A stretch of 64,000 nucleotides of DNA, taken from assembly GCA_022828125.1 (NCBI GenBank), contig JAJEJD010000012.1, positions 193,309 through 257,308 on the forward strand, in the 5' to 3' direction. This document shows, piece by piece, positions 1,323-54,534 of the stretch. The stretch comes from a bacterium. Lineage in GTDB: Bacteria > UBA8248. The number at the start of each line of letters is the position of its first letter. Within the stretch, counting starts at the first letter, position 1. The notes under the pieces were generated by a model, which had not been told where the DNA came from, searched no databases, and was given only the letters and a program-made list of their open reading frames with translations. The translations under genes and the position numbers were made by a program.

Positions 1323-1439
1323 GAAAACCAACCCCCCCTTGTCAGGGGGGCAAGAAAAATCAAAACCCCCCTCAGCCCGGCGGGGGCGCATCGCCTTTTT
1401 ATACCCCCCTGACAAGGGGGGGTAGGGGGGGTTGGTTTT
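1323..1439. repeat. MITE-like palindromic element, family R1, copy 1 (left arm lacks the TACCCCCCC unit)
   Basis: Arms AAAACCAACCCCCCCTTGTCAGGGGGG and CCCCCCTGACAAGGGGGGGTAGGGGGGGTTGGTTTT. Internal ...GGGGGCGCATCGCCTTTTTATA hairpin with a T-tract. Confidence 0.8.
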
Positions 1440-1595: not shown

Positions 1596-2201
1596 TCAAG
1601 AAGGCAGGGGCACGTCTTTCCCGTAAATCTGCTCGGACTGCTCTTGCGTCACGGGGTTGCCCTCGGGATCGTGCAAGGGATAGGCCTTGAGTGTGCGCAT
1701 GAAGACCTGGAAACCATAGTGAATCGCCACCATCGCGCCGATCTCCATGATCTGGGCTTCTGAAAAGTGCTTCTTGCCCTCATCGTAGAATTCCTTGTCG
1801 AGTCTCGCGGCGTCCCGGTACATCCAGTAGGAATAGCGGAGCGCCCACTTCTCGGCTTCGGTGAACTGCGGGTCGTTCTCGAAATCTCCGCAGGCGGCCT
1901 CAATGCGTTCTTCCGTCAGGCCCTCTTTTTTCGCCTGCTCGGAGCGAAGGTTCGCAAAGTAGGTGTCCTGCGCGGTTCTGGCGAGCTGGATGCGGATCAT
2001 CTCCTTGAGCTTGTGGTCCACCCCGCCCATGGCGTGGGAGCGGTGCATGGCGTCGTGCAGGTTGGCGGCATAGCCGGGCGCATGGGCCATGATGCGCGAG
2101 AAAAGCGCATCGGGCGCCTGGGTTTCGGCGGTGCGCTCCATGACGCGCTTCCAGTTCTTCTCTTCAATTCCTTCGGGTTCGAGCGGCTCGATAATCGGCA
2201 T
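1596..2201 (-). CDS. carboxymuconolactone decarboxylase (CMD/AhpD-like) family protein, Cys-less at the CxxC position
   Basis: 201 aa ORF with the CMD-family HKLKEMIRIQL block. GGAGG RBS 6 nt upstream of the ATG. Paralogous to the gene immediately upstream. Confidence 0.75.
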   Translation of the reverse strand: MPIIEPLEPEGIEEKNWKRVMERTAETQAPDALFSRIMAHAPGYAANLHDAMHRSHAMGGVDHKLKEMIRIQLARTAQDTYFANLRSEQAKKEGLTEERIEAACGDFENDPQFTEAEKWALRYSYWMYRDAARLDKEFYDEGKKHFSEAQIMEIGAMVAIHYGFQVFMRTLKAYPLHDPEGNPVTQEQSEQIYGKDVPLPS

Positions 2202-2210
2202 GTTCTCCTC

Positions 2211-2873
2211 CTAGCTTCCGCCTGCCTGTTGCGCCTCACCCTCTTCGATCGCGCGAGCGAGCGGGCCGCTCAGGTGCGATACGGGGCAATCGCCGTAGAT
2301 GCGGCGCGATTCCTCCTGACTCACCAGCCGGCCGTCGGGGGTGAACATGGGGTAGAAATCGAGTGTTCTGAAAAAGGTGTGGTAGCCCACGTTGAAGCCG
2401 ATGAAAGAGCCGAGCTCAACAATTTCCTCATCCGAGTAGTGCTCGCGCAGCCTTGCGTAGAAGGCCTCGTCGATCTTCTCGGGCTCCGAATCCATGAGTT
2501 CACTGTATTCAAGCGCGAGTTTTTCGGCCTCGGTGAAAAGCTCGCTCTCGTGCCAGTTGTCGATGCCCTCGTCTATCATCTCTTCCGTCAAGCCTGCCTG
2601 CTTCGCCGAAGCAGAGCGCACGTTACCTCAGTAGTTGCAAAAGGCGCGGCGCGATAGCTGGACGCGGATGATCTCCTTGAGCTTGTGGTCGATGACGCCG
2701 GTGTTGAACACCGTGCCCCACGCGAGGTACATCGATTTCGCCAGATCCTCGTTGTGGCCCTGCATGGCGTGAAAGGCGGGGTCGGGCGCGCGGTGTTTTA
2801 ACGCCTTGTTGACGAACGGCGCCAGCTTCGTCTTCTTCAGATCCTCGATGTCGAGCATGGTGATGTTGGACAT
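2211..2873 (-). CDS. CMD/AhpD-like family protein with an in-frame TGA (2628..2630) in a C-N-Y-U motif; selenoprotein candidate (AhpD-like selenoprotein)
   Basis: ORFs 2628..2873 and 2211..2621 are in the same frame, separated only by TGA plus 2 codons. Joined product is ...HKLKEIIRVQLSRRAFCNY-U-GNVRSASAKQAGLTEEMI.... It aligns to the CMD consensus GCaYC, with Sec at the second Cys. The paralog 1596..2201 has DTYF at this position. Confidence 0.6.
2598..2614 (-). promoter_or_regulatory. hairpin (7 bp stem CUGCUUC/GAAGCAG) 13 nt 3' of the in-frame UGA; candidate bacterial SECIS
   Basis: mRNA reads UGAGGUAACGUGCGCUCUGCUUCGGCGAAGCAGGCAGG; perfect inverted repeat read directly from the sequence. 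Confidence 0.4.
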
Positions 2874-2922: not shown

Positions 2923-4290
2923 TCAGGCTCCGCTCTCTGCCTGAACGCGGCGCAGGGCGGTGTCGAGAGCGGAGGCGGCGCGCTCGGCCTCTTCTTCGGT
3001 CAAGACCAGCGGCGGACTGATGGTGACGGTGTTCGAAGGACCTGCGGCGATACCTGCGTTCTTGCCGAAGATCACGCCTTGCTCCTTCGCGTAGGCCAGC
3101 ACCTTCGCCGTGGCCGCCGTGGATAGCGGCGCGCCGTCTTCCTCTATCAACTCCACGCCCCAGATGAGGCCCACGCCCCGCACGTCGCCCACGCAGGGGA
3201 TGTCGGAGAGTTTGCCCAAAAGCCCGCCGAGATATGCGCCCACCTTGGCGCCGCGCGCGGGCAACTCCTCGTCCATCATGATTTCGAGATTCTTGAGCGA
3301 CGCCGCGCAGGCGACGGGGTGTCCGCCGTAGGTGTTTATCTGCAGAAAGCCTGAGTCTCCTTCGGCGTTCAAGGCCTCGAATATCTCGTTCGTGGTCGCC
3401 GTCGCCCCGATGGGCAGATAAGCGCTGCTCAGCCCCTTGGCCATCGTCATGATGTCCGGCTCGATCTCGTACAGATCGGAGGCGAAGAGTTCTCCCGTGC
3501 GCCCGAAGCCGGTGATGACCTCATCCGCGATAAACAAAACGCCGTGGTTCCGGCACACCTCGCGCATGCGTTTCAAATAATCCGCGGGCGGTGGAATCAC
3601 CCCGCCGCCGCCGATGACGGGCTCAGCGATGAACGCCGCCACGGTCTCGGGGTCTTCGTAGCGGATGACCTCATCCAACTCGTCCGCGCACCGGCGGGCG
3701 AGTTCTTCCTCGGTGTCCGCGTTGCTTCGGTAGAAATAGGGCGCGCTCACGTGAATCACGCCCGGCAGAAGCGGCTCGAACATCGCGCGCCGGAGCGTCT
3801 GGCCGGTGAGGCTGGCGCCTCCGATGGTCGCCCCGTGATAGCCCTGGTGGCGGGCGATGATCTTGTATCGCCTCCCGCCGTTCAAGCGGCCATAGGCGCG
3901 GGCCAGCTTGATGGCCGTGTCCACGGCTTCTGAGCCCGAGTTCACGAACCAGACGCGCTCGACCCCTTCGGGCAGCAAGGACGCGAGCCGCTCGGCGAGC
4001 CTCGCCGCGGGGGGATTCACCTGCGTCAGTGGATAGTACGCCAACTCCAGCATCTGCTCGTAGGCCGCCTTGGCCACCTCGTCGCGCCCGTAGCCGATGT
4101 TCACGCACCAAAGCCCCGCCATGGCGTCGATGTATTCCTTGCCGGAGGCGTCCTGGATGGTCGAACCCCTGGCCTTGACCACGACGTCGAGGGGATTTTC
4201 CTCTATCCCGGAATGGTTCATGAGCGGATGCCAGACGTGTTCCTTGTCCATCGCCCGCAAGGATTCGGCTTCGGCTATGGCTGGATTCAT
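2923..4290 (-). CDS. class III (omega) aminotransferase, PLP-dependent
   Basis: Motifs GLWCVNIGYGRDEV, VNSGSEAVDTAIKLAR, ARHQGYHGATIGGASLTGQ. Start set at the internal Met with a GAGGGG RBS (ORF track starts 13 codons earlier, at 4329). Confidence 0.8.
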   Translation of the reverse strand: MNPAIAEAESLRAMDKEHVWHPLMNHSGIEENPLDVVVKARGSTIQDASGKEYIDAMAGLWCVNIGYGRDEVAKAAYEQMLELAYYPLTQVNPPAARLAERLASLLPEGVERVWFVNSGSEAVDTAIKLARAYGRLNGGRRYKIIARHQGYHGATIGGASLTGQTLRRAMFEPLLPGVIHVSAPYFYRSNADTEEELARRCADELDEVIRYEDPETVAAFIAEPVIGGGGVIPPPADYLKRMREVCRNHGVLFIADEVITGFGRTGELFASDLYEIEPDIMTMAKGLSSAYLPIGATATTNEIFEALNAEGDSGFLQINTYGGHPVACAASLKNLEIMMDEELPARGAKVGAYLGGLLGKLSDIPCVGDVRGVGLIWGVELIEEDGAPLSTAATAKVLAYAKEQGVIFGKNAGIAAGPSNTVTISPPLVLTEEEAERAASALDTALRRVQAESGA

Positions 4291-4384
4291 GAGGGTCCCC
4301 TCTCGGGTTTCAGCAATTCGGAATTCCATTGATCGATGCGAAAATCTTAATGCGCAAACGGGTGCGAATCAACCGCCGGGAGAA

Positions 4385-5371
4385 CTAGCCCGGCGTATAT
4401 TCGGGGCTTTCGCTCCTGATCCGAAAGGCCTGGCGCCCGACCCCCTCGATTTCGCCTTCTATCAAGTCGCCCTCCTGGAGATATTCCCCCCACGAGGCGG
4501 CGTTGCCGGCAGGAGAGCCGGTGCCGATGATGTCGCCCGTCCGAAGCGTGGCGATCCCCGATAGATACGATACCTGCTCGGCGACCCGCCAGACCATGTC
4601 GCCCGTGGTGGCGTCTTGTCTCAGTTCGCCGTTCACCCAGAGCTTGAGCCTCAAATCGTGGGGGTCGAGCCCCTCCTCGGGGAGCAGGATGTAGGGGCCG
4701 ATGGGAGCGAAGCCGTCCGGGGCCTTCATGGCGTACCAGTCGATGAACTTTCCCATGTTGAGCGTCGTGCGGTCGCTCATGTCGTTGAACAGGGTGTAAC
4801 CGCCCACGTGATCCATGGCTCTTTCCACCGGAATGTTCTTGCCGCCCTGTCCGATGAGCACGCCGAGTTCGAGTTCGTAGTCGAGCTTTTCCATCGAGGG
4901 ATAGACGGGCACGTCCTCATATGGGCCGCTCACGCACGTGGCGGGCTTCAGGAAACAGTAGAGCGGGAGCTCCTCCTTGAAATCATCCACTTCGGTGCGC
5001 GCCATCTCGGCGGCATGGGCCACATAGTTTCTCGCCATGCAGAACAGCGTGTCCGGCACGACGGGGGGAAGAATCTCGACTTCATCGGGTTCATAGACCA
5101 CCTGCATTCCGTCGAAGCGAGCCGGGTCCTTTTTGCTCCCGTGCGCTTCGAGTGCTTCGAGAGCCTCCTCGGCGAGAGGACGGTTCAGTTCCAGGTCCTC
5201 GATGAACTCCTCGCAATCATGGGGGATCTCGGCCTCGACGCGATCCATGGCCTCCGCCGCTGTTTCCTCATCGAGCGACAGGGCGTAGGCCAGTTTCAGA
5301 TCGGCGATTCTCTCCCTGAACAGGACGCCGATGCGCGCCTCGCCCGCCAGACTGAACGTACAGATTCGCAT
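4385..5371 (-). CDS. fumarylacetoacetate hydrolase (FAH) family protein
   Basis: 328 aa; FAH-family C-terminal fold pattern (GDIIGTGSPAG..., EGVG). GGAGG RBS before the ATG at 5371. Confidence 0.75.
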   Translation of the reverse strand: MRICTFSLAGEARIGVLFRERIADLKLAYALSLDEETAAEAMDRVEAEIPHDCEEFIEDLELNRPLAEEALEALEAHGSKKDPARFDGMQVVYEPDEVEILPPVVPDTLFCMARNYVAHAAEMARTEVDDFKEELPLYCFLKPATCVSGPYEDVPVYPSMEKLDYELELGVLIGQGGKNIPVERAMDHVGGYTLFNDMSDRTTLNMGKFIDWYAMKAPDGFAPIGPYILLPEEGLDPHDLRLKLWVNGELRQDATTGDMVWRVAEQVSYLSGIATLRTGDIIGTGSPAGNAASWGEYLQEGDLIEGEIEGVGRQAFRIRSESPEYTPG

Positions 5372-5510: not shown

Positions 5511-6356
5511 TTATTCCGTTCTTCGGTGCCGGTTCAGAAAATCGAGAATCAGCCGCCGCGCCTTCTCGTTGCGAGAGAGGTTGTGCGCCCGGCCCTCGAA
5601 AAGGTGAAACGCCATGTTCACGCCCCGCGCCCTTGCCTTGCGCAGGCACGAATCGGCGGGCCTGCCTCGCCTCCAAGGGTCGTCTTTCGAATACAGCGCG
5701 AGTGCGGGCGTACCGATCGGCATCCGAACGCCTCGCCAGCATACGGAACCACTGATGACGTGGGCGCTGAACTCATCCCCTTCATAGGCGGCGACCGCGG
5801 TGCCGCCTTGGCTATGTCCCGCCAGGAAGAGGTTTTTCCGGTCCACCCACCGAATGCGCCGGACTCGATATTCCGCGTGATGAATCTCCTCCTGCCGCAT
5901 CCGGCTCACCCGCCGGTGCGGCGCTCCCTTTATGCCTCGGTGTCGGGAAGGATCGCAGGTCTCGGGCCGGTAGCGGCGGGCGAAGCTGTCGGGCGCGATG
6001 ACGGCGTATCCCGCCCGCGCCAGAAACCGCATATAGCGCAAGTTTCCCCGGCCCAGCCCGGTGCAGCCGTGCGCGAAAATGACGGTGGGGCGTTTTCTCT
6101 TGAGGCCCGCGAGTTTTTGCTGAATGAAACCGTCGCTCATCCTGCCTTCGATGAGCGCGTCTTCTGCCTCGAACATGACGTAAGCGGCGTCGAAGGTGCG
6201 CCTCGCCTCCTCAAACAGATCGAGCGTTTTGGGGTCGACCCCTCCGGCGCAGCCCGATAAGAGATAACAAACCAACATCAGGATGAAGATAGAATGCCGC
6301 GTGGATGAATAACCGACAGTTCCGCGCCTCATAAACCCCCTAGACCACACCCTCAT
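5511..6356 (-). CDS. alpha/beta hydrolase lipoprotein, dienelactone hydrolase-like
   Basis: Lipobox LLSGCAGG, nucleophile elbow GHSQGG, DLH-like length. Start may instead be the internal Met at about 6332. Confidence 0.6.
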   Translation of the reverse strand: MRVWSRGFMRRGTVGYSSTRHSIFILMLVCYLLSGCAGGVDPKTLDLFEEARRTFDAAYVMFEAEDALIEGRMSDGFIQQKLAGLKRKRPTVIFAHGCTGLGRGNLRYMRFLARAGYAVIAPDSFARRYRPETCDPSRHRGIKGAPHRRVSRMRQEEIHHAEYRVRRIRWVDRKNLFLAGHSQGGTAVAAYEGDEFSAHVISGSVCWRGVRMPIGTPALALYSKDDPWRRGRPADSCLRKARARGVNMAFHLFEGRAHNLSRNEKARRLILDFLNRHRRTE

Positions 6357-7572
6357 CTTCCAGCTCTTTCAACTCAGCATCCGATACGCCGAGCAGGCCG
6401 CCGAGGATCTCCGCGTTGTGCTGGCCCACGAGCGGGGCGGGCGTTTTGTAGTCACCCTTTATCTCGCTGAATTTGAAGGGAAAGCCCGGGGCTTTCGCGT
6501 TCTTGAGGGTTCCGAGGGTGGGATGTTCGATGTCGACTATCATCCCGCGCTCTCGCATGTGGGGCCAGGCGAGGATGTCCTCGATGGTGTTCACCGGCCC
6601 GCAGATGACGTCGTGCGCGCGCAGGGAGGAGACCGCTTCTTTCGCCTCGCGGCGCTTCGTCCATTCGGTGATGATGGCGTCGACCTCCGCGACTCTGCTC
6701 ACGCGCCGGCTCATGTCCTCGTAACGCTCATCGCCAATCAATTCGGGGCGCTCGATACCGCGCAGGATGTTGTGCCAATGCGCGTTGGTGCCCGAGGCGA
6801 TGATGACCCAACCGTCTTTCGTCTCATAGGCGTTGAACGGGGCGAGCCGCATGATGCGGTTGCCGATGCGCGGCGGGAGGCCCAGTTGTTCGTAAAAATC
6901 CATCGGCTCATCGAAGATCAGGGAGAAGATGCAGTCGATCATCGAAATGTCGACCTGCTGGCCCTCCCCGGTGCGCTCGCGGTGAAAGAGCGCCGTCATA
7001 ATGGCGCCGAAGGCGAACGTGCCGCCCACGCTGTCACCGAGCGCGGAGCCCGCCTTGGTGGGCGGGCCGTCGGGAAATCCCGTGAGGTTCATGAGGCCCG
7101 AGGCGGCCTGGGAGACGGCGTCGTAGCCCTTGAGGCCCGAATCCGGCCCCGTCTGGCCGTAACCCGTGATGGAGCAGTAGACCAGGGAGGGCTTTCTCGC
7201 ATGGAGCGTCTCGTAGTCAACTTTAAGCCTTTTCGTGACGCCGACGGAGAAATTCTCCACCAGGATGTCGGATTGATCCACGAGCCCGTAGAACATTTCG
7301 AGACCCCGGGGGTCCTTGATGTTCAGGGTGATCGCCTTTTTCGCGCGCGTGCGCTTCAAGTAGGCAATCCCCAGGTCCTCATCCGTCTGGGGATGGTAGG
7401 AGACGCCCTTCTCACCGATGTAGGGTGGCGAATAAGCCACCGGGTCGCCGGTGGCCGGATTGTCGACACGGATGACCTCGGCCCCCAGCCCCGCCAGAAA
7501 AAGCGTGGCCTGCGGACCCGAGAGAAACTGCGTCAGGTCGAGGACGCGGATGCCTTCTAATGGCTTCGTCAT
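6340..7572 (-). CDS. CoA transferase family III (CaiB/BaiF-type)
   Basis: MTKPLEGIRVLDLTQFLSGPQATLFLAGLGAEVIRVD... is the family III CoA-transferase N-terminal signature. Roughly 75% identical to the paralog at 46755..47987. Confidence 0.85.
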   Translation of the reverse strand: MTKPLEGIRVLDLTQFLSGPQATLFLAGLGAEVIRVDNPATGDPVAYSPPYIGEKGVSYHPQTDEDLGIAYLKRTRAKKAITLNIKDPRGLEMFYGLVDQSDILVENFSVGVTKRLKVDYETLHARKPSLVYCSITGYGQTGPDSGLKGYDAVSQAASGLMNLTGFPDGPPTKAGSALGDSVGGTFAFGAIMTALFHRERTGEGQQVDISMIDCIFSLIFDEPMDFYEQLGLPPRIGNRIMRLAPFNAYETKDGWVIIASGTNAHWHNILRGIERPELIGDERYEDMSRRVSRVAEVDAIITEWTKRREAKEAVSSLRAHDVICGPVNTIEDILAWPHMRERGMIVDIEHPTLGTLKNAKAPGFPFKFSEIKGDYKTPAPLVGQHNAEILGGLLGVSDAELKELEDEGVV

Positions 7573-7583
7573 GAAAAGCCGAG

Positions 7584-8126
7584 CTAGCCTTCGAGCAGAA
7601 TCTTCACCGCCTGGCGGGCCGCATCGCCCGCGCGCGCGGAGATTTCCTCATCCGAGAGCGTGCTCAGGGGGTGCTGGATAACCACGGGGTCGAGGTCGTT
7701 CATGCCCAAAGCCGCCCTTTGCACGTGGGCTTCGTGCAGGAAGACCTCGGTCACGACAACGGCGGTGGGCACCCCTTTTTCTTCCAGGGAGATCGCATCG
7801 TGCATACAGCACGAAGTGCAGGAGCCTCAGTCCCCGATCGCCGTCAGGACGACGTCGTTCTCCTCCGCGATCTGCGCGATCAACTCAGGCGCCGCGTTTT
7901 TGGAAAAACTCTCTTTCTTGTAGTAGCGCACCTCGGCGAAGGGGCCTTCCGCCTCCATCAGCGCCGTGGTTTTCTCGAGCAGCCTGCGCCCGTTCCACTT
8001 CGTGTTGTCCAGGACGCCGAGCTTGAGACCCTTCAAATCCCGGACGCGCTGCGCAGTGGGTTGGGCCGCTGCCTCGACCACTCCCCGGGGGTCGTAGACG
8101 ACCTGACCGGTGATGACGTCACTCAT
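7584..8126 (-). CDS. small protein with in-frame TGA (7827..7829) in a D-U-G-S-C-T-S-C-C motif; selenoprotein candidate (UGSC-type)
   Basis: ORFs 7827..8126 and 7584..7805 share one frame, with only TGA plus 7 codons between them. Joined product is about 181 aa: ...VVLTAIGD-U-GSCTSCCMHDAISLEEKGVPTAVVV.... UxxCxxC-like arrangement. Confidence 0.6.
7798..7814 (-). promoter_or_regulatory. hairpin (UCGUGC/GCACGA stem, UGUAU loop) 12 nt 3' of the in-frame UGA; candidate SECIS
   Basis: mRNA reads UGAGGCUCCUGCACUUCGUGCUGUAUGCACGAUG; inverted repeat seen directly. Confidence 0.35.
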
Positions 8127-8154
8127 GGTTTCCTCCAGTTTTCTCTTGCTAACG

Positions 8155-9249
8155 CTATAGCAGACAGGTGCCGTCCACGCAGACGGGGCCGCCTTCGAGC
8201 GCTCTTCCGTCGATTGCGCGCAGCACCGGGTTCGTCATGTGGCCCCAGCCGGGAATGAAGGCCGAGAAACGGCCCGCCTCCCCGCCCGCCACGAACAGGT
8301 GAATGTTCTCGGGAGACGGCACGATGGGGATTCTCTCATCCGGCTCGCGCCTGTACCACTTGGGGATGTTGCGGTTGTAAACTTTTCCGTAGCGGTGGTT
8401 GAACGAGATATCGGCGAACGTGTTCCTGGTGTGCATCCACAGGTAGCTCTTCACGTCGTTCCGCGTCCAGTTCTTTGCGCTGATGGTCGCCCCGTGCTCG
8501 GGGCTGATGACGACGGCGCACGAGCCGCTGCTCACCGAATTGTTGTGCGCGATCGTGCTCATCGCCGAGCAGATGCTGTCGAGGATGCCCTCGGGATCGT
8601 CCGAGATGTGGTTCGTCACGCTGTGGGGCGCCTCGGCCGCGATGGCGAAGACCGTGGAATCCTCGGGCGCGTAGCCCTGTTCCACGTGGTAGGGCGCCCA
8701 GGGGCTGGCCTCTTCGTTCTCCGCGATGCAGTAGGTGTATTTGGTGGGACAGCCCAGCGTGCTCTTGTCCAGATCGCCCGGCCACGCGCCGCCGGCGTTC
8801 AAGAGCATCATCCGCACCGCGCGGCCTATCGTCGCGTTGGCGCGGTTGCCCGAGCCGAACACGTTGCAGCCCGCGTTCATGCCGATCTCGTGCCGAACCG
8901 GCCCGTTCACCACGATGAGCGGGCACGCCATGTGTGTTGTGGCCTGCACGCCGTTCAGGTTGAAATGGGGGTCGCAAAGCGCCAGCATCGCCGCGCGGAC
9001 GACGGGCGCGTACTCCGCCTTGCAGCCCGCCATTACCATGTTGATCGCCAGAACCTCTCTCGTGAGGTTGCCCCAGCGAGGCGGCACGCGGCACTCGATG
9101 TAGTCTTTATCTCCGCCCAGGGCTGAGACGGCAGCGTCTATCTTCTCGGGCGTGGGCGGGACGACGGGAAGCCCGTCCGAGAAGCCCTGCTCGTAGTAGT
9201 ACTCCACCAAGTCGACTTCCTGATCCACCATCTGCGTCGTCTGCGACAT
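8155..9249 (-). CDS. conserved hypothetical protein (Cys-rich, 364 aa), first gene of the apparent operon
   Basis: Long ORF with GC-typical codon usage. The next gene follows 28 bp downstream. I do not recognise the family. Confidence 0.5.
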   Translation of the reverse strand: MSQTTQMVDQEVDLVEYYYEQGFSDGLPVVPPTPEKIDAAVSALGGDKDYIECRVPPRWGNLTREVLAINMVMAGCKAEYAPVVRAAMLALCDPHFNLNGVQATTHMACPLIVVNGPVRHEIGMNAGCNVFGSGNRANATIGRAVRMMLLNAGGAWPGDLDKSTLGCPTKYTYCIAENEEASPWAPYHVEQGYAPEDSTVFAIAAEAPHSVTNHISDDPEGILDSICSAMSTIAHNNSVSSGSCAVVISPEHGATISAKNWTRNDVKSYLWMHTRNTFADISFNHRYGKVYNRNIPKWYRREPDERIPIVPSPENIHLFVAGGEAGRFSAFIPGWGHMTNPVLRAIDGRALEGGPVCVDGTCLL

Positions 9250-23824: not shown

Positions 23825-25891
23825 ATGCGATTCGCGGTCGATACGGGCGGGACCTTCACCGACCTGGTGCTCGAGGACAACCGGGGCCGCCTCCACATGT
23901 TCAAGGCCCCCACGACGCCCCAGGACCCGGTGGAGGGCATTCTCGCGGCGATAGAGTCGGCAGCCGTTGCGCTCTCGACGAGCACCGAAGAACTCCTCGC
24001 CCAGGGCGAGCTCTTCATCCACGGCACCACCCACGCCACGAACGCCATCGTGACGGGGAACACCGCGAAGACCGCCTTCCTCACCACGAAGGGCCACCCC
24101 GACATCCTCGTGCTGCGCGAGGGCGGGCGCATGGAGCCGTTCAACTTCCTGGTGCCCTTCCCCAAACCCTACATCCCGCGCGCGCTCACCTACGAGGTGC
24201 CCGAGCGCATCGGCGCCGACGGCAGCGTCTATGAGCCGCTCGATGAGGCGGGCGTCATCAATATCATCGAGGAGCTCAAAGAAAAAGAAGTGGAGGCGGT
24301 GGCCGTCTCTCTCCTGTGGTCCACCGTGAACCCTCAGCATGAAATCGGCGTGGGACGCCTGCTCAAAAAACACTTGAAGGGCGTGCCATACACCTTATCT
24401 CATGTCCTCAACCCGATTCTCCGCGAATACCGCCGGGCGTCTTCCACCTGCATCGACGCATCGCTCAAGCCCCTGATGTCGCGCTACATCGGCGGTTTGC
24501 AGGAGCGGCTGGCCGCGGCGGGCTTCGCCGGAAGGCTCCTGATGCTGACTTCCAAGGGCGGCGTGATGGACGCGGGCGAACTCGCCGAAGCGCCCATCCA
24601 CTCGGTGGGTTCGGGGCCTTCGATGGCGCCCATCGCGGGCAGGCACTTCTCCCGCGCCGACGCCAGGGCCGCGACGGCGATAGTGGCCGACACCGGCGGC
24701 ACCACCTACGACGTGAGCCTCGTGCGCCGGGGCGAGATACCCATGTCGCCCGAAACCTGGCTCGGCCAGCGTTACCGGGGCCACATACTGGGCTTCCCCT
24801 CGGTCGACGTGAAGAGCATCGGCGCGGGCGGCGGCAGCATCGCCTGGGTGGATGAGGGCGGACTCCTGCACGTCGGCCCCCAGAGCGCGGGCGCGGAGCC
24901 GGGGCCGGCCTGCTACGGCCGGGGCGGAACGCGCCCCACCTTGACGGACGCATCTTTGGTGCTCGGCCACATCGACCCGGACTATTTCCTGGGCGGCGCG
25001 ATGACGCTCAACACTTCCGAAGCCGAGAAGGCCATCTCGAAAAACGTGGCCGAACCGCTGGGGCTATCTCTTCAGGAGGCGGCCTCGGCCATTTTGAGAC
25101 TGGCGACGGAGAACATGGTGGGCGCGATCGAGGAGATCACCATCCACCAGGGCATCGACCCCAGGGGCGCGGTGCTCATCGGCGGCGGCGGTGCTGCGGG
25201 CTTGAACTCGGTCGCCATCGCCAAGCGCCTGGGCTGCCAGGGCCTCGTGATTCCGGAAGTCGGCGCGGCGCTATCGGCCGCGGGCGCGATGATGAGCGAC
25301 CTGCACGCCGATTACCGCTCGATGTTCTTCACCATCACGGACCGGTTCGACTTCAAGGGCGCGAACGCGACCCTGAGAACGCTCGGCGACAGGTGCCGCG
25401 CGTTCATCAAAGGCCCCGGCAAGGGGGCGGTGGAGAGCGCAACGGAGTTCTACGTCGAGGCGCGCTACAAGCACCAGATCTGGGAGATCGACCTGGGGCT
25501 GCCCATCAACCGCTTCCGCTCGAAAAAAGACGTGGAGCGCACGCGGGCGGCGTTCGACGAAGTGCACGAGGAGGTGTTCGCCTTCCGCGATCCCTCATCC
25601 GAGGTCGAATTCGTCGGCTGGCGCGCCGTGGCGCGGTGCAAACTGAGAAAGGGCCGCTTCGGCAGGCTCGTCCGCGAGGCGATCCACGAGACGACGCTGC
25701 CCAAGCGGCGCGAAGCCTACTTCGCGGGCAAGGGACTCGTGAACGCCCGCGTGGCGGCGTTCGATTCCATGAAGCCGGGCGAGGCGATGCGAGGCCCCGC
25801 CATCATCGAATCGCCGTTCACGACGGTGGTCATCGACCCCGGCGCAAAGGCCGAGCGCACGAGAAGCGGCAGTCTGTTCATTACGCTCTAG
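23825..25891 (+). CDS. hyuA: hydantoinase/oxoprolinase A family protein
   Basis: MRFAVDTGGTFTDLVL start and the ADTGGTTYDVSLV second ATP-binding motif; 688 aa. Confidence 0.85.
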   Translation: MRFAVDTGGTFTDLVLEDNRGRLHMFKAPTTPQDPVEGILAAIESAAVALSTSTEELLAQGELFIHGTTHATNAIVTGNTAKTAFLTTKGHPDILVLREGGRMEPFNFLVPFPKPYIPRALTYEVPERIGADGSVYEPLDEAGVINIIEELKEKEVEAVAVSLLWSTVNPQHEIGVGRLLKKHLKGVPYTLSHVLNPILREYRRASSTCIDASLKPLMSRYIGGLQERLAAAGFAGRLLMLTSKGGVMDAGELAEAPIHSVGSGPSMAPIAGRHFSRADARAATAIVADTGGTTYDVSLVRRGEIPMSPETWLGQRYRGHILGFPSVDVKSIGAGGGSIAWVDEGGLLHVGPQSAGAEPGPACYGRGGTRPTLTDASLVLGHIDPDYFLGGAMTLNTSEAEKAISKNVAEPLGLSLQEAASAILRLATENMVGAIEEITIHQGIDPRGAVLIGGGGAAGLNSVAIAKRLGCQGLVIPEVGAALSAAGAMMSDLHADYRSMFFTITDRFDFKGANATLRTLGDRCRAFIKGPGKGAVESATEFYVEARYKHQIWEIDLGLPINRFRSKKDVERTRAAFDEVHEEVFAFRDPSSEVEFVGWRAVARCKLRKGRFGRLVREAIHETTLPKRREAYFAGKGLVNARVAAFDSMKPGEAMRGPAIIESPFTTVVIDPGAKAERTRSGSLFITL

Positions 25892-25900
25892 GAGCAGGAT

Positions 25901-27703
25901 ATGGCGAGAGCAGCAACGAGACGCGCGAAGCGAAAGACGAAACTCGATCCCATCACACTGGCCGTGCTGCACAAGCGCTTCGACGCCGTGACGACCAAGA
26001 TGGCGAACACGCTCCTGCGCACGGGCCGCTCGGGCGTGCTGAACCTCGCGCGCGATTTCTCGACCTCCGTGGTGACGCGCGAGTGCGAACTGCTGACGGG
26101 CGCGGAATCACTGCCCATCCACCACCTCAGCGGCGCGGACCTGATGGCCCGCTCGATGATGGACCTACACCCCGACCTCAAGCGCGGCGACGCCTATCTG
26201 CACAACTCGCCCTACCACGGCTGCTCGCACCCGGCGGACCACACCATCCTCGTGCCCGTCATCGACAAGCGGGGCGAGCACCAGTTCACCGTGTGGGTGA
26301 AGGCCCACCAGGCGGATTGCGGGTGCAGCCAGCCCACCACCTACATGGGCCACGCGCGCGATGTCTATGAAGAGGGCGCGCTCATCTTCCCGCCCACCAA
26401 GGTGCAGACGAACTACGAGGACAACGAGGACTTCATCAACTTCTGCCGGATGCGCATCCGCGTGCCCGAGCAGTGGTACGGCGACTATCTCGCGATGATT
26501 GGTGCTGCGCGCATCGGCGAGCGCGAGGTGCTCGCCATGGGCGATGAATACGGCTGGGAGACGCTGCACGATTTCTCGAAGGAGTGGTTCGACTACAGCG
26601 AGAAGCTCATGGTCTCCGCCATCAAAAAACTCCCCACGGGCGAGGCCACCGCCCACAGCACGCACGACCCCGTGCCCGGCACGCCCGAGGAGGGCATCCC
26701 CATCACCGCGCACGTGCGGATCGACAACAAAAAGGCCACCATCGAGGTGGACTTGCGCGACAACCCCGACGCCATGCCCTGCGGCCTGAACCTGAGCGAG
26801 GCCTGCGCACGCACCGGCGCGATGATCGGCGTGTTCAACAGCATCGACGACATCGTGCCCACGAACGCGGGCAGCTTCCGCCGGATCAACGTGCTCATCC
26901 GCGACGGCTCGGTCGCGGGCGGCGGCAAGCACCCCACTTCGATGTCCGTGGCCACCACCAACCTCGCCGACCGCGTGACGAACCCGGTGCAGCGCGCGTT
27001 CTCGAAGATTCAGGACGGCATCGGCCTGGCGGAATGCGGGCCGATTTTCCCGGCGTCGATGGGCGTCATCTCGGGCTTCGACCCCAGGAACGACAACGAG
27101 CCCTTCGTGAACCACCTCTTTTTAATGGTTACCGGCGGCGCGGGCGCGGGCAAGACCGACGCCTGGCTCACCATCCTGCACGCGGGCAACGCCGGCATGT
27201 GCTTCGTGGACAGCATCGAACTGGACGAACTCCACTTCCCCATCTACATCAAGACGCGCAGGCTCATGCCCGACACCGAGGGCGCGGGCCGGACGATAGG
27301 CGCGCCTTCGGGCTATTGCGAATACGGCCCCGTGGGAGGCGGCGATCTCGAGGTCGTCTACGTGTCCGACGGCGCGATAAACGCTTCGAAAGGCACGCTC
27401 GGCGGGCTGAACGGGGCGGCTTGCAAGAATTTCCTCATGCGCGAGGACGGCTCTCTGGAGGATCTCCCCGCCTGTGCTGACATCATCTTAAAGCCCGGCG
27501 AGAACGTGGCGTCCTACTGTACGGGCGGGGGCGGCTACGGCCCGCCGCACGAGCGGCCCGTCGAGAAGGTGCGCGAGGACGTGGAGGAGAAGTGGATCAC
27601 CAAAGAGCGCGCCTGGAAGGTCTACGGCGTCGCGGTCGACGACGCGGGCCAGGTGGATGCGGCCAGAACCAGGCGGAAACGGAACCGGTTGAGTAACAAG
27701 TAG
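25901..27703 (+). CDS. hyuB: hydantoinase B/oxoprolinase family protein
   Basis: 600 aa; the HyuB-type DPITLAVLHKRFDAVTTKMANTLLRTGRSGVLNLARDFSTSV block. Adjacent to hyuA with a 9 bp gap. Confidence 0.85.
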   Translation: MARAATRRAKRKTKLDPITLAVLHKRFDAVTTKMANTLLRTGRSGVLNLARDFSTSVVTRECELLTGAESLPIHHLSGADLMARSMMDLHPDLKRGDAYLHNSPYHGCSHPADHTILVPVIDKRGEHQFTVWVKAHQADCGCSQPTTYMGHARDVYEEGALIFPPTKVQTNYEDNEDFINFCRMRIRVPEQWYGDYLAMIGAARIGEREVLAMGDEYGWETLHDFSKEWFDYSEKLMVSAIKKLPTGEATAHSTHDPVPGTPEEGIPITAHVRIDNKKATIEVDLRDNPDAMPCGLNLSEACARTGAMIGVFNSIDDIVPTNAGSFRRINVLIRDGSVAGGGKHPTSMSVATTNLADRVTNPVQRAFSKIQDGIGLAECGPIFPASMGVISGFDPRNDNEPFVNHLFLMVTGGAGAGKTDAWLTILHAGNAGMCFVDSIELDELHFPIYIKTRRLMPDTEGAGRTIGAPSGYCEYGPVGGGDLEVVYVSDGAINASKGTLGGLNGAACKNFLMREDGSLEDLPACADIILKPGENVASYCTGGGGYGPPHERPVEKVREDVEEKWITKERAWKVYGVAVDDAGQVDAARTRRKRNRLSNK

Positions 27704-37721: not shown

Positions 37722-40076
37722 CTACCAGCGCAGCGAGCCGCGAAGCGCCAGGCCGTGGTCGACGTCATCCACACCTTCGCGGCGCTCGCCCTCCAGGCTC
37801 ATGCTCAAGCGTTCGCCGAGACGGAATCGCCCGCCCGCGCGGTAGCTCTGCGCCGCCTCCGAGACCGACACCCCGCCATAAGGGGTGAGGAGACCGCCCA
37901 TGCCGTCCAGACCGTAGCCCACCTCCGCGTCCAAGCGCGCGCCCGGTTCGAATTCCCCGCTTCCAGTCAGGCCGGCAGCGCTGCGCCCGCTCCAGAGCTG
38001 CTCCGGTCCGCCCGCCGGGGCGCCCCAGGACGAACCCAGCCGCATGGACAAGCCGCGTCCCCCCTCGCCCGGAGCGAGGCGCAACGAGCCGCTCACGCCC
38101 CATTCCTCATAATCGCTGTCCGCATGTGCGAGCAGCCCCCGGGCGCTCACCTGTACCGTGAAGCCCGAACCCGCGTAGCGCAGCCCGCCGCCGACCTCGA
38201 CGCCGCCTCCCGTCTCGGCGTCGCCGCCGTCGTAGCGCAGACCCACCTCGATGGAGGGCGTCAGGCTCGCGCCCGAGGCGAACCCGAACTCACGCGAGGC
38301 TTCGAGCGCGAGGCGCAGGCGGCTCGTCTCCGCCTCTACCTCCGCGAAACTTTCCGTCTCATCGGAACTCGTCCACGTCATCAGCGCATCCGAGCGAAGC
38401 GCGAGTTCGAAATCTCCCTTGCTCACGGCGGGCAGCAGCACGCCGCGCGCGCCCAGCGACGCCATGTTCATCTCGATGTCGGCTTGGGCGGCGCTACTTC
38501 CCGCCGTGGTGAGCGTCAACTCGCCGCGCCCGTGGCCGAGCACTCCCCAGGCCGAGAGGCGCTCGCTGAAACGATAGCGCGCATAGGGATAGGCGCCGGT
38601 GAGCGTGCTCTCCAGATCGCCGCCGCAGCCCGAAGCGCAGCTTCCGCCGATGCGGAACTCACCCTCGCCCGCGCTACGCGAGAGCGCCACGCCGGCCAGC
38701 CACCGCTCGCGTTCGAAATCGAAGCCCAGCGTCGCGGTGGTGACATCGCCGTCGAGCGCGAGCGCGCCCTCTTTGGCGTCGAAACCCGAACGCGCGGCGC
38801 CTCCCCAGAACGACCAGCCCCCGCCGGCGTCCGCGCCTTCCGCGGAGGCCAGGTGAAAGGAACTCGCGAGCAGCAACTCGCTCATCGACATCTCGCGCCC
38901 GGCGAAAACCTCCCCGCTCCGCTCATCGAGAGAACCCTCCGCGAGGCGCGCGGCGGAATCCCCATCCGCCAAAGGGAGGGGGGAGCCTGCCAAATCGATA
39001 TCCTGACCGCCGAGCGTGAGTCGAGTGCCCGGCGCTCCGCGCATCCTGTCGCCGATGGCCCCGGTGACGTGCTCCGCCGCCGCCCGCCCGAAGCGCGCGA
39101 GCCACGCCTCCTGCGGCGCGGGCGCGTCATCCGCCGTGAGCAGGTTCGTCTCCGTCACCGTCCCCGTGTTCATCCACTCGACGATGGCCCCCACCGTCTT
39201 GCGCTCCTTGCCCAGGAAACCGTGCGCTGTCTGCGCCTGGCAAACACTGGGGCTTATCTGCGAATGCCCTCCGCTCACGGAGACGAACTCCTTGCGCGGG
39301 CTGTTCGTGATCGCGTTGAATGTAGTCTGCGCATCTGAAAACTGCGTACCGGGGCACAAGTCGTCCGTGTGATGCACCATCAGGACGGGGCCTCTGATTG
39401 CGCTTGCATAAGACACTATCGACCCCGCGCTTGCGGTGAGAACGTAGCCCGCGACTCCCGGATGCGTGATCACGGAGGCCAGATATGCGACGGACGTCGA
39501 GCCGTTGCTCGTGCCGATGAGGTACACCTCGCGCGCGCCCTCGCTCACCAGAAAATCCACGGCAGCGCGCACGTCCGCATGATGCTGACTCGACCACCTG
39601 AATGAAAATTCCATGCCTTCGCTCCTGTCCGAAGGAGCGTCGATGATGGCCGTGACGAAGCCCGCCTCGGCGAAGAGTGCTGAGCTTCTCACCAGAAAAT
39701 TGCCGCTAAGCCTGTGGTCCCTCTCCCGCGTAATCGGCGTTCCCGCGCCGCCCATGAAGAGGATGACGGCCTTGTTCCCTGCATTCCTCGCCCTGGCGAG
39801 CAGAAGACGCTGCCGCACGCCCTGCCGCGTGGGAAGACGCACGTCCTCCCAAGGGAGCGAGGCGACGTTGCCGACGCCTCTGGGGTGGGGCAGTACGTTG
39901 ATCGGTTTCCGTACGATTGCCGGGGTCAGCGGCCGGCCCGGCATGGTGGCGGGCGGGGCGCCCACGGTCGGGCCGCCGCCCCCACCGCCTCCGCAGCCCG
40001 CCGGCCCCAGCGCCAGAAGCGCCGCCAGCGTGAAAGCGGACAGTTTGTTCGTGGACGTGTCTTTGCGGAAAAACAC
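37722..40076 (-). CDS. autotransporter outer-membrane protein with alpha/beta hydrolase (esterase-like) passenger; lipoprotein-type signal
   Basis: LAALLALGPAGCGG signal, a passenger with an a/b-hydrolase pattern, a Gly/Ala-rich C-terminal beta-barrel ending ...LRGSLRW. Confidence 0.65.
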   Translation of the reverse strand: MFFRKDTSTNKLSAFTLAALLALGPAGCGGGGGGGPTVGAPPATMPGRPLTPAIVRKPINVLPHPRGVGNVASLPWEDVRLPTRQGVRQRLLLARARNAGNKAVILFMGGAGTPITRERDHRLSGNFLVRSSALFAEAGFVTAIIDAPSDRSEGMEFSFRWSSQHHADVRAAVDFLVSEGAREVYLIGTSNGSTSVAYLASVITHPGVAGYVLTASAGSIVSYASAIRGPVLMVHHTDDLCPGTQFSDAQTTFNAITNSPRKEFVSVSGGHSQISPSVCQAQTAHGFLGKERKTVGAIVEWMNTGTVTETNLLTADDAPAPQEAWLARFGRAAAEHVTGAIGDRMRGAPGTRLTLGGQDIDLAGSPLPLADGDSAARLAEGSLDERSGEVFAGREMSMSELLLASSFHLASAEGADAGGGWSFWGGAARSGFDAKEGALALDGDVTTATLGFDFERERWLAGVALSRSAGEGEFRIGGSCASGCGGDLESTLTGAYPYARYRFSERLSAWGVLGHGRGELTLTTAGSSAAQADIEMNMASLGARGVLLPAVSKGDFELALRSDALMTWTSSDETESFAEVEAETSRLRLALEASREFGFASGASLTPSIEVGLRYDGGDAETGGGVEVGGGLRYAGSGFTVQVSARGLLAHADSDYEEWGVSGSLRLAPGEGGRGLSMRLGSSWGAPAGGPEQLWSGRSAAGLTGSGEFEPGARLDAEVGYGLDGMGGLLTPYGGVSVSEAAQSYRAGGRFRLGERLSMSLEGERREGVDDVDHGLALRGSLRW

Positions 40077-41940: not shown

Positions 41941-42197
41941 TGACGCTTTTGCAGTGCGGCGCAGGAGCATTCTGCCATGACCCGCCGCGCCCGCGATGAC
42001 CGCAAATGCGGGGAAATGCGCATTCCGCGCAAAAGGGCACCGAACGGCCCATATGATGCGATTTTGCCTCATCGCGGCGTTGTGCTAGATTCAATCCATC
42101 CTCTCGAATGAAAACTCAGGCGTCAGGCGAATGCCGCGAGAGGACGAGCAGTTCCAGGTCAACGCACGGATCCGACAACGGAAACCCGAGGTTACAC

Positions 42198-43100
42198 GTG
42201 GACCGAACCGAGGCCCGAAAACCCATTGATAATCAAGAGGTAAAGCGCACAGCCCGCGAGCTGGGCGCCGACCTCGCGGGGGTCGCATCGGCGGAGGATT
42301 TCGCGGAAGCGCAGCCGGGCTGCCGCCCCAGGGACTTGTTCAACATGGCGAACAGCGTCGTCGTGGTCGCCAAGCGCGTCCCCTTCGCCGCGGCCACGCC
42401 CTATCCCAGCATCGGCGCGATGGAGTTCGGTGAATACATCCCCGAGAATTTCCTGAACGAAGCCTGCTATCGCCTCTCGCTGTTTCTCGAAGATATGGGC
42501 TGGCTCTCGGGCGCCACCCCGTGCGGGCGCGACATCACGAGCTTCCGCGTGGAAGAAGAAGGCGCCGAACCCAGGGTCTTCCTCCAGGGCTCCTTCGACT
42601 TGCGGCTCGCGGCGGTCAAGGCCGGTCTCGGGCATATCGGCGCCAATAACTGCCTGATAACGCAGGAGTACGGCTCTCGCGTCCGCCTGGGCGCGGTGTT
42701 CACCGAGGCGAAGCTCGAACCCGACCCGCCCAACCAGGTCGGCGCGATCCCCGAGTTCTGCCATGAGTGCGGCTTTCGCTGCGTGAAGGCCTGCCCCGCG
42801 AACGCGCTGCCCGGCGACGGCACGGTGGATCACTACCGCTGCATGGTCATCCGGCCGGACCTGGTCGCGCCGGAAAAAGCCCTGGCCCACTTCAAGAAAC
42901 TCTTCCGGGGCAAGCCCATGATCATGGCGGCCAAGGGCCTCTCCTACACCGACAGCCCGCCGCATCCATGCAGCACCTGCATCGCGCTCTGCCCGATGGA
43001 TCAGGGCCGCGATTTCGCGCATAAACCCTTTCACCGCGAATCCTGGACCGATGAAGACGCGCTCAAGGTCATCGATCCGGCCCTGCTGGAGAATCCCTGA
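42198..43100 (+). CDS. QueG-like (epoxyqueuosine reductase family) 4Fe-4S protein, paralog 1
   Basis: GANNCLITQEYGSRVRLGAVFTEAKLEPDPP block plus Cys cluster CHECGFRCVKACP. GTG start aligned to the paralog. Confidence 0.5.
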   Translation: MDRTEARKPIDNQEVKRTARELGADLAGVASAEDFAEAQPGCRPRDLFNMANSVVVVAKRVPFAAATPYPSIGAMEFGEYIPENFLNEACYRLSLFLEDMGWLSGATPCGRDITSFRVEEEGAEPRVFLQGSFDLRLAAVKAGLGHIGANNCLITQEYGSRVRLGAVFTEAKLEPDPPNQVGAIPEFCHECGFRCVKACPANALPGDGTVDHYRCMVIRPDLVAPEKALAHFKKLFRGKPMIMAAKGLSYTDSPPHPCSTCIALCPMDQGRDFAHKPFHRESWTDEDALKVIDPALLENP

Positions 43101-43101
43101 A

Positions 43102-43971
43102 ATGGATAACGGCAAAGGCGCCGGAATTACCTCAGGCGACGTCAAGGCGCAGGCCCGTGAATTCGGCGCGGACCTCGTCAACATTTCCTCGTGCGAGGGC
43201 TACGAGAAAGCGCTCCCCGGCTGCAAGCCCCATGACCTGGTGAAGGACGCCAGGAGCGTCGTCGTCTTCGCGCGCCGGATGCCCTTCGGCAACGCGACGC
43301 CCCGACCCTCGGTGGGTTATCTGGAATTCGGCTATTACGGGCACGAGGCCTGGATCAACAAGCTCTCATACCGCCTGGCGCTCTGGTTGGAGGACGAGGG
43401 ACACATGGCGCTGCCCACGCCTGCCGGACGGGACATCCCCTCGCTCCGCATCCTTCGAGAAGGCGCGGAACCGGAAGTCTTCATGCAGGGTTCTTTCGAT
43501 CTCAGGCTCGCCGCGGTGAACGCGGGCATGGGCGAGATCGGCGTGAACAACAACCTCATCACCGCCGAATACGGCTCGCGTCTGAGACTCGGAGCGGTCG
43601 TCACGACGGCCGCGCTCGAAGCGGACCCGCCCCAAAAATACGGCGTGGTTCCCGATTTCTGCGTGGAGTGCGGCTACAAGTGCATCAAGCCCTGCCCGGC
43701 GGGTGCGCTGCCCGGAGACGGCGCGGTGGATCACTACAAGTGCATGGTGATGTATCCCCAGAAAGTTTCATCGGAAAAAGCCGTCGACGTCTTCAAGACG
43801 CGCTACGGCTACCCCGAACTCCAGCTCGCCGGACGAATGATGGCCTTCACCGAGAACGCGCCGCACATCTGCGCGACCTGCATCACCCTGTGCCCCATGG
43901 ACGAAGCGCGCCGCGTCAAGGAGAAGGCGAACGGCGGCGGGGGCGGTCAACCACTTCCAGTCGTGCCATAA
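43102..43971 (+). CDS. QueG-like 4Fe-4S protein, paralog 2 (tandem)
   Basis: Roughly 55-60% identical to the preceding gene (GVNNNLITAEYGSRLRLGAVVTTAALEADPP; CVECGYKCIKPCP). Confidence 0.5.
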   Translation: MDNGKGAGITSGDVKAQAREFGADLVNISSCEGYEKALPGCKPHDLVKDARSVVVFARRMPFGNATPRPSVGYLEFGYYGHEAWINKLSYRLALWLEDEGHMALPTPAGRDIPSLRILREGAEPEVFMQGSFDLRLAAVNAGMGEIGVNNNLITAEYGSRLRLGAVVTTAALEADPPQKYGVVPDFCVECGYKCIKPCPAGALPGDGAVDHYKCMVMYPQKVSSEKAVDVFKTRYGYPELQLAGRMMAFTENAPHICATCITLCPMDEARRVKEKANGGGGGQPLPVVP

Positions 43972-53907: not shown

Positions 53908-53936
53908 CTATCACTGCCCTTCCATCGATTACGGCC

Positions 53937-54485
53937 CTAGAGGATATAGACCGGCAGGAATTTAAGCGGTAAGGGGATCTTCAGCATCGGCACCAGTCCC
54001 AGATACAGGATGATCATCGTCACAAAAGACAACGCGAATCCCAGCAACAGCGCGCCGCGCGGCGCCGATTCCACCCGCATGCGCGGGACCAGCAGGCACA
54101 TCATGAGCACGATGGTCATGATCTCGAACCCTATCGGCTCGAGCAGTACCGCGTAGAGGTAAACGAAAACGACGATGGAGGCGAACTCCAGCCAATGCCC
54201 CCGGAGGTAGGGCTCCTCGCCGCCCGCGGCTTGCGCCTCCGGGGGCAGGAAAAACCCGCGTCCCAGGACGATCACCGCCCAGATAATCGAGAAACCCAGG
54301 GCCAGGCGGGGGAAAAAGGCGTCGCCCGGATACCCCGGCTCGTAGGGAGGCTGCATCGCATAGGTTTCGTAGTACAGAAACGCGAGTCCCCCCAGGATGA
54401 GGGCGGTGGTGGTCAACACCGCCGCCCTCATCGGAACCTTCAACTCATAGGGAGACGCGGCGCTCTTTTCTTTTTCTTCCGTCAT
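53937..54485 (-). CDS. tctB: tripartite tricarboxylate transporter TctB family protein
   Basis: Small 4-TM hydrophobic protein between tctC and tctA. Confidence 0.65.
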   Translation of the reverse strand: MTEEKEKSAASPYELKVPMRAAVLTTTALILGGLAFLYYETYAMQPPYEPGYPGDAFFPRLALGFSIIWAVIVLGRGFFLPPEAQAAGGEEPYLRGHWLEFASIVVFVYLYAVLLEPIGFEIMTIVLMMCLLVPRMRVESAPRGALLLGFALSFVTMIILYLGLVPMLKIPLPLKFLPVYIL

Positions 54486-54534
54486 GTCCGCGCCTTAATG
54501 ACGGCGGAACCTGCCGCCGTCCGCTCAAATCCAG

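Follow-up and report, generated by a model that had tools for sequence, protein, structure and literature searches.

A predicted UGSC-family selenoprotein with a conserved UGA hairpin and a putative dedicated partner in a bacterial gene cluster

The UGSC family, whose members carry either selenocysteine (Sec) or cysteine at the same site, has been catalogued computationally since 2007-2008. A UGSC-containing protein was first described as a selenoprotein of unknown function present in Hyphomonas neptunium (PMC1976440); the family then appeared among the selenoprotein families that were most abundant in Global Ocean Sampling (GOS) metagenomes, where it had 255 Sec and 21 Cys forms (PMC2398784). 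A survey from 2016 counted it in 26 organisms (PMC5029168), and it is reported too from bacteria with UAG recoded for Sec (PMC5330540). In a 2026 review it is still uncharacterised (PMC13188914), and no description of a UGSC function or of a UGSC partner was found in the literature searched. Here, we analyzed a 64,000-nucleotide stretch of a bacterial contig (JAJEJD010000012.1, positions 193,309 to 257,308), referred to below as the window, which carries on its minus strand, at 7584..8126, a gene that adds a member to this known family. We describe the evidence for Sec at its in-frame UGA and for a partnership between its product and a 364-residue protein encoded immediately upstream.

Two other groups of selenoproteins invite comparison. 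GrdB and PrdB, the selenoprotein B subunits of glycine and D-proline reductase, share with UGSC a Sec-then-Cys UxxC motif, a weak similarity around the Sec site and a second subunit, a putative one in UGSC and a substrate-binding one in GrdB/PrdB. Unlike them, UGSC is much smaller, scores far under the GrdB/PrdB cut-offs and is accompanied by a protein unrelated to the pyruvoyl proproteins PrdA/GrdE; its carriers are mostly aerobic Proteobacteria and Nitrospinota, whereas GrdB/PrdB belong to Stickland-fermenting clostridia. The thioredoxin-fold UxxC/CxxU selenoproteins (thioredoxin-like, Prx-like, SelW-like and AhpD-like) have in common with UGSC a U/C-x-x-C motif at a helix N-terminus, an environmental spread and the occurrence of Cys homologs, but UGSC is predicted to be flavodoxin/Rossmann-like and is tied to a dedicated partner. 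In bacteria, Sec is inserted at UGA when the SelB·GTP·Sec-tRNA(Sec) complex binds a hairpin in the mRNA, the Sec insertion sequence (SECIS). In Escherichia coli fdhF, as read from the genome, this element consists of the UGA, 11 nt and the hairpin GGUUGC-AGGUCU-GCACC.

The window gene starts at an ATG (8126..8124, minus strand), 5 nt behind a Shine-Dalgarno GGAGG that was read directly from the sequence (8132..8136, minus strand). Ninety-nine sense codons, ending in NDVVLTAIGD, lead to a TGA at 7829..7827, and the codons that follow it (GGC TCC TGC ACT TCG TGC TGT) encode GSCTSCC and are succeeded by an ATG at 7805, the frame remaining open until a TAG at 7586..7584. An earlier note, made from the sequence alone, had described two in-frame open reading frames (ORFs) separated by a TGA and seven sense codons, and this layout is what we find on the minus strand. 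Only 28 nt separate the gene from the upstream 364-residue ORF (8155..9249) and 11 nt from the ATG of a downstream CoA-transferase gene (7572). Read through the TGA, the frame comprises 180 codons plus the stop, with Sec at codon 100 (U100, TGA at 7827..7829, minus strand) within the motif D-U-G-S-C. Translation, family models and homolog alignment make it nearly certain that 8126..7584 is a single UGSC-family Sec gene with a 180-residue product; this assignment and an obligate partnership with the 364-residue protein, taken as one reading, are very likely.

For the family models, the query was the joined 180-residue protein with U replaced by C. It matched the equivalog model NF041046 of NCBIfam, "UGSC family (seleno)protein", with 159.9 bits against a cut-off of 125 (residues 33-177), and the Pfam model PF24696, "UGSC", with 199 bits against a gathering score of 25 (residues 10-178, covering profile positions 2-171 of 172). 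Both matches run across the UGA, in agreement with the UGSC identity that the earlier note had proposed for the joined product. Compared with known members such as ABI76733.1 of H. neptunium (Zhang and Gladyshev, PMC1976440, PMC2398784), the window gene shares the end-to-end model match, the D-U-G-S-C motif, the Sec/Cys pair, a SECIS-like hairpin and a length of about 180 residues, and nothing essential differs; the window gene comes from a MAG lineage of Nitrospinota type.

A search of 5.8 billion proteins returned 912 UGSC homologs. The alignment with 25 full-length homologs runs across the TGA, and the full-length homologs (50-63% identity) have IGD-C-GSC at that site without exception; homologs extending over the TGA, including Cys homologs, had been named in the earlier note as the place to look, and they are there, with Cys at codon 100. 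A profile search among 1.84 billion representative sequences widened the set to 1,871 relatives. Across all architectures, namely split, NifU-fused and partner-fused, the universal residues are P13, N41, D99, U/C100, G101, C103, D110, E115, F129 and G141, while position 102 is Ser in 17 of 18 members and Asn in one. Because C106 and C107 are subfamily-specific and U/C100 and C103 universal, the essential motif is UxxC and not UxxCxxC: of the longer signature that the earlier note had put forward, the D-[U/C]-G-S-C part holds throughout the family and the additional cysteines do not. Among the NifU-fused members, P0401 and P0394 are proteins of about 275 residues with a C-terminal NifU-like domain (PF01106), scored in P0401 at 32.4 bits against a gathering score of 27.

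One line of comparative evidence for Sec concerns the TGA itself. One genome per species was scanned, yielding 441 confirmed relatives, and codon 100 was counted in the best 80 of these plus three metagenome loci. All 83 loci carry TGA at that codon, and they span Nitrospinota, Tectomicrobia, Chloroflexota/Dehalococcoidia, Alphaproteobacteria, Burkholderiales, SAR324, Vicinamibacteraceae and Rokubacteria, with two cultured Alphaproteobacteria, Reyranella sp. CPCC 100927 and Vineibacter terrae, among the carriers. In 84 of 85 loci the frame continues for 79-90 codons past the TGA, and the variable sites of this downstream part are distributed 17/7/54 over codon positions 1/2/3, as against 24/20/67 upstream. 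By these comparative measures, the region after the UGA is translated and under purifying selection at the protein level.

A hairpin that the earlier note had seen downstream of the UGA lies at 7798..7814 (minus strand). It starts 12 nt after the UGA and is 17 nt long, with a 6-bp stem (UCGUGC/GCACGA) and a 5-nt loop (UGUAU). This upper stem is paired in all 36 diverse sequences compared, its single variable pair being G-U in 18, G-C in 17 and A-U in one (L059), where both sides have changed relative to G-C and the change is thus compensatory. From the TGA onwards, the consensus DNA reads TGA GGN TCN TGY ACN TCG TGC TGT AYG CAY GAY. Among distinct sequences, synonymous third positions are frozen inside the hairpin (Ser-TCG in 69/70, Cys-TGC in 70/70 and Cys-TGT in 70/70), at sites that fall in its 5' arm and loop, but vary freely in the adjacent Gly, Ser and Thr codons and in codons further downstream. 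Where Sec forms encode C-[M/T]-H-D, three Cys-form loci encode C-[L/I/V]-R-D; since these three lack the hairpin and differ in these residues, it seems that in Sec forms the RNA element shapes the peptide just after Sec.

The resemblance to the fdhF element is considerable: both are stem-loops within the coding sequence, 11-12 nt past the UGA, and in both the upper hairpin measures about 17 nt, the loop has a G-U and the core is UGC...GCAC. The UGSC hairpin differs in its perfect 6-bp stem without a bulged U, its 5-nt loop and its lower stem, which RNAfold predicts, which is paired in 56% of cases and which we left out of the model as not conserved; the element is a predicted SECIS only. For the UGA and its hairpin, the comparative data are decisive and folding energy alone is not. 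Judged by this sequence comparison, the hairpin behaves as a conserved SECIS with the geometry of bacterial SECIS elements. Neither Rfam nor ARAGORN gave a match on the window.

The second component is the gene at 8155..9249 (minus strand), which lies 28 nt upstream of UGSC and encodes a 364-residue protein of an unannotated family. Scanning 41 members at E<=1 gave no Pfam or NCBIfam match, and sequence searches of the PDB gave chance-level matches only, with none for the partner. Its homologs, grouped at 90% identity, nevertheless fill more than 7,600 clusters, essentially all named 'hypothetical', apart from one UniRef entry named 'Thiol-disulfide oxidoreductase'. In 75 of 84 loci, and in 57 of the 66 outside the window's own clade, UGSC is directly preceded by the partner gene on the same strand. 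The partner is the more conserved of the two, being 70-83% identical where UGSC is about 60-76% identical, and Cys-form UGSC genes also keep it adjacent. Neither a second UGSC nor a second partner copy was found in the window.

Fusions add a further argument. Six of the 1,871 UGSC relatives (P0323, P0360, P0363, P0391, P0420 and P0422; 541-567 residues) combine an N-terminal UGSC domain in Cys form (CGSCTSW) with 330-370 C-terminal residues of the partner family, P0323 being 36% identical to the window partner (E 9e-75). Synteny and fusion together make a physical and functional partnership the best-supported inference, and an obligate partnership between UGSC and the 364-residue protein is, on these genomic patterns, likely. 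In the partner, Gly/Pro positions, N138, R143, R146, D161, K170, E177, N178 and H252 are universal in split and fused forms and C76 nearly so, while C244 and the C357-x4-C362 tail are confined to split forms and missing from the fusions, which argues against a three-Cys Fe-S site in the partner. An 'Unknown_1' domain fused to UGSC was drawn in the 2008 GOS paper (PMC2398784), and the fusions found here suggest that it is probably the partner family; motif searches for 'Unknown_1' in the text supplements of that paper gave no match.

The AlphaFold2 model of the partner (predicted template-modelling score, pTM, 0.83) has no convincing fold relative in the PDB. Foldseek ranked class I fumarate hydratases first, with a probability of 0.93 but a TM-score of 0.26. 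A hydro-lyase resembling the class I Fe-S fumarate hydratases was considered, and the balance of the data speaks against it: hhalign against E. coli FumA gave a probability of 0.05, and only C76 of the partner remains conserved once fusions are included. An analogue of the PrdA/GrdE pyruvoyl proproteins was likewise set aside, there being no family signal in the 41 members scanned.

For UGSC, the predicted structure of a Cys homolog (mean predicted local distance difference test, pLDDT, 86.8) shows a series of beta-alpha units in which U/C100 immediately follows a strand and lies at the N-terminal end of helix 101-116. The fold is predicted from this homolog model to be an alpha/beta arrangement of the flavodoxin/Rossmann type and not thioredoxin-like. 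With the motif D-[U/C]-G-S-C at the helix N-terminus, U100 and C103 would be placed for cycling between selenol/thiol and selenenylsulfide. The papers searched mention neither this flavodoxin-like predicted fold nor the near-obligate 364-residue partner, nor the linkage to selC, selA, selB and selD described below.

In the window, the partner-UGSC pair heads a co-directional cluster, all on the minus strand, that ends at a terminator-like hairpin (1331..1351) found by a terminator scan. The gene 11 nt downstream of UGSC (6340..7572) encodes a family III CoA-transferase (PF02515, 386 bits), whose best NCBIfam matches, both partial and below cut-off, are succinate-glutarate and succinyl-CoA:mesaconate CoA-transferases. 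Pfam matches identify, in order, a dienelactone-hydrolase-like protein (5511..6356), an FAA-hydrolase family protein (4385..5371), a class III aminotransferase (2923..4329), an AhpD-like/CMD protein (PF02627; 2211..2873) and a CMD paralog without the Cys/Sec motif (1596..2201). The AhpD-like gene, 5 kb downstream of UGSC, is itself a selenoprotein candidate with a C-N-Y-U (CxxU) motif: its TGA (2628..2630) is kept in 18 of the 18 clade relatives that cover it, and a perfect 7-bp hairpin, CUGCUUC-GGC-GAAGCAG, comes after it. The earlier note had taken the tight spacing of the UGSC gene as a sign of operon membership rather than of a decayed relic, and the short gaps, the co-directional cluster and the recurrent gene order in relatives point the same way.

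How much of this cluster belongs with the pair can be judged from the other loci. The CoA-transferase is the second commonest neighbour (35/84 loci, and 18/66 outside the clade), and the remaining cluster genes join the pair only in the window's own clade. Outside it, LysR regulators, TctC binding proteins, acyl-CoA dehydrogenases and CMD proteins occur sporadically.

Elsewhere in the window, a second family III CoA-transferase (46755..47987, plus strand) is 69% identical to the one at 6340..7572, with a TctA/TctC transporter (52378..55536, minus strand) nearby, as well as an acyl-CoA dehydrogenase (57528..58721). The stretch 23825..27703 (plus strand) encodes both subunits, A and B, of a hydantoinase/oxoprolinase (PF01968/PF05378 and PF02538). 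Several genes have no Pfam match at E<=1e-5. Two of them, at 42108..43100 and 43051..43971 (plus strand), form a tandem pair of paralogs that share 55% identity and have Cys motifs of a ferredoxin-like type (C-x2-C-x3-C-x3-CP and C-x2-C-x3-CP). The other two, at 37722..40076 (784 residues) and 44460..45545 (361 residues), both on the minus strand, have a lipoprotein-like N-terminus that is Gly-rich after the Cys, and the C-terminal half of the 784-residue ORF resembles an autotransporter beta-domain, by eye only.

Taken together, these data lead us to propose the following scheme. SelB·GTP·Sec-tRNA(Sec) would bind the UGSC hairpin on the translating mRNA and Sec would be inserted at UGA100. 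The product would join the 364-residue protein in a heteromeric two-component enzyme and provide its redox subunit, U100 and C103 cycling between selenol/thiol and selenenylsulfide. The redox-subunit role is, in our estimate, probable, if by a limited margin of confidence. More speculatively, the substrate might be a carboxylate or carboxylic acid or a CoA ester, because a family III CoA-transferase is a frequent neighbour, because TctC and LysR genes also occur beside the pair and because the partner has invariant Arg, Lys, Asp, Glu and His residues; this assignment of a substrate class is tentative and doubtful.

Several observations weigh against this scheme or against parts of it. Neither the 64 kb of the window nor the 12.5-kb loci of its closest relatives contain a selA, selB, selD or tRNA-Sec gene, so that we infer Sec decoding in the source organism from sequence comparison. 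The folding energy of the hairpin is not significant by itself (z = -1.23, with 25 of 200 shuffles folding equally well), and covariation proper is minimal, five of the six stem pairs being invariant. The case for the hairpin rests on the frozen synonymous sites, part of which a conserved peptide could explain, and its absence from Cys forms was seen in three loci, the only three examined at the DNA level. On the side of the protein, the structure model is that of a 56%-identical Cys homolog and not of the window protein itself, and physical interaction with the partner is predicted from synteny and fusion. No neighbour but the partner reaches a majority of loci.

Among the alternatives, the pair could be a miniature analogue and distant relative of the GrdB/PrdB reductases, in which the partner activates the substrate and the UGSC selenol attacks it, with reductive C-X cleavage ending in an Se-S bond to C103. 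PrdB is listed with a UxxC Sec motif in a table of the GOS paper (PMC2398784), the two-subunit organisation is similar, and weak local matches bracketing the Sec site recur among 36 UGSC members, to PrdB in 34, with a best E of 1.8e-4, to GrdB in 14 and to GrdF in three. All of these nevertheless stay far below the curated cut-offs, the window protein reaching at best 15.9 bits against 300 (TIGR04483, TIGR01917), and the Pfam GrdB-family model PF07355 is absent from the matches even at E<=1. No resemblance to PrdA/GrdE or any other family is seen in the partner, and the fusions do not conserve its C244, at which self-cleavage would be conceivable. Of the GrdB-type resemblance that the earlier note had pointed out, a recurrent weak signal remains, family membership does not, and distant homology between UGSC and GrdB/PrdB is possible judging from these local matches. 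The full GrdB/PrdB-like chemistry appears unlikely.

The literature has tentatively read UGSC as a free-standing thiol:disulfide oxidoreductase of thioredoxin fold engaged in general antioxidant defence, in which case its neighbours would be incidental. The UxxC motif at a helix N-terminus fits this idea, as does the label 'Thiol-disulfide oxidoreductase' on the one UniRef partner entry. A partner that is adjacent in 75/84 loci and fused in six representatives speaks instead for a dedicated two-component system, and gene order and fusions together lead us to regard UGSC as a redox subunit of such a system and not as a free-standing general thioredoxin, a role that we consider improbable for it.

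The pair might, alternatively, serve selenium or sulfur trafficking, for instance the delivery of selenide to SelD, and not catabolism. In 19 loci a tRNA-Sec gene is no more than about 6 kb away from the pair, the sole other tRNA in any locus being one tRNA-Ser; selB is near the pair in nine loci, selA (569 bits), selB and tRNA-Sec accompany it in L053, and a fusion of an oxidoreductase (Ndh) with SelD lies directly downstream of UGSC in L026 and L077. The loci with Sec genes near the pair are L026, L029, L030, L032-L034, L036, L038, L041-L043, L050, L052, L053, L060, L069-L071, L077 and L083. Trafficking would account for this linkage, seen in up to 19 loci, and for the NifU-like carrier domain on some UGSC proteins. 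Selenoprotein genes, however, commonly adjoin Sec machinery through joint inheritance alone; Cys forms keep the partner beside CoA-transferase, TctC and LysR genes with no Sec genes nearby, and in the window the operon headed by the pair looks catabolic. We therefore judge a trafficking role to have little likelihood. We count the Sec genes beside the module in other lineages, together with the conserved TGA of the AhpD-like gene, as indirect support for the Sec trait.

Public annotations of UGSC genes bear on how the UGA is read. The gene calls P0040 and P0061 (99 residues, 96-98% identical) are the same gene cut at the TGA, and on their contigs the 99- and 73-residue halves are called separately, in the gene order of the window; among the top 150 UGSC representatives, 12 stop exactly at profile position 99. 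In P0001 (L087), a Joint Genome Institute (JGI) gene call, the TGA is translated as W, although the DNA there has TGA and the same hairpin. Such mis-annotated Sec forms, split or with Trp at the TGA, lie at 6298..6840 of L001, 16..558 of L003 and 216..773 of L087. As a gene call, our reading is thus a correction of public annotations that split UGSC into 99- and 73-residue pieces or put Trp at the UGA.

The W of P0001 and the window's lack of visible Sec machinery are what could be said for an ordinary amino acid at the UGA, whether Trp or Cys by near-cognate suppression or a residue assigned by genetic code 4 or 25. A code in which TGA is a sense codon is excluded because 10 of the window's 26 genes with Pfam support use TGA as their ordinary stop. 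The one miscall aside, homologs carry Cys and never Trp, the UGA is followed at the canonical distance by a conserved SelB-type hairpin, and selC, selB, selA and selD are physically linked to the UGSC module in other lineages, all of which leaves this explanation with very little to recommend it. That the TGA is a true stop in a decayed or split gene, with a 99-residue product and possibly a separate 73-residue product from the ATG at 7805, is hardly credible: automatic gene callers do annotate the split, an ATG does occur seven codons past the TGA and the window does lack Sec machinery, but no decay process would keep TGA at the exact codon in 83/83 loci across phyla, full-length homologs replace it by Cys, the seven intervening codons are conserved as protein (GSCTSCC) and include the universal C103, downstream variation is skewed to third codon positions and the hairpin is specific to TGA forms.

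The preferred reading, a Sec-containing redox subunit acting with the 364-residue protein, would change the standing of the family. We lean, though not strongly, towards regarding UGSC and its partner as a widespread, uncharacterised two-subunit selenoenzyme whose catalytic subunit has no recognisable fold relative. Since selC, selA, selB and selD sit beside UGSC, it may also be the selenoprotein on whose account many aerobic Alphaproteobacteria and Burkholderiales retain their Sec machinery. The partner and fusions, the linkage to Sec machinery, the non-thioredoxin predicted fold and the universal D-U/C-G-S-C core turn a catalogue entry into a testable system, for which cultured carriers exist in Reyranella sp. 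CPCC 100927, V. terrae and H. neptunium. If the reading is true, a selenoprotein family that ranks among the most abundant in the environment would gain its first functional handle, in the form of a partner, fusions, cultured carriers and a candidate substrate class.

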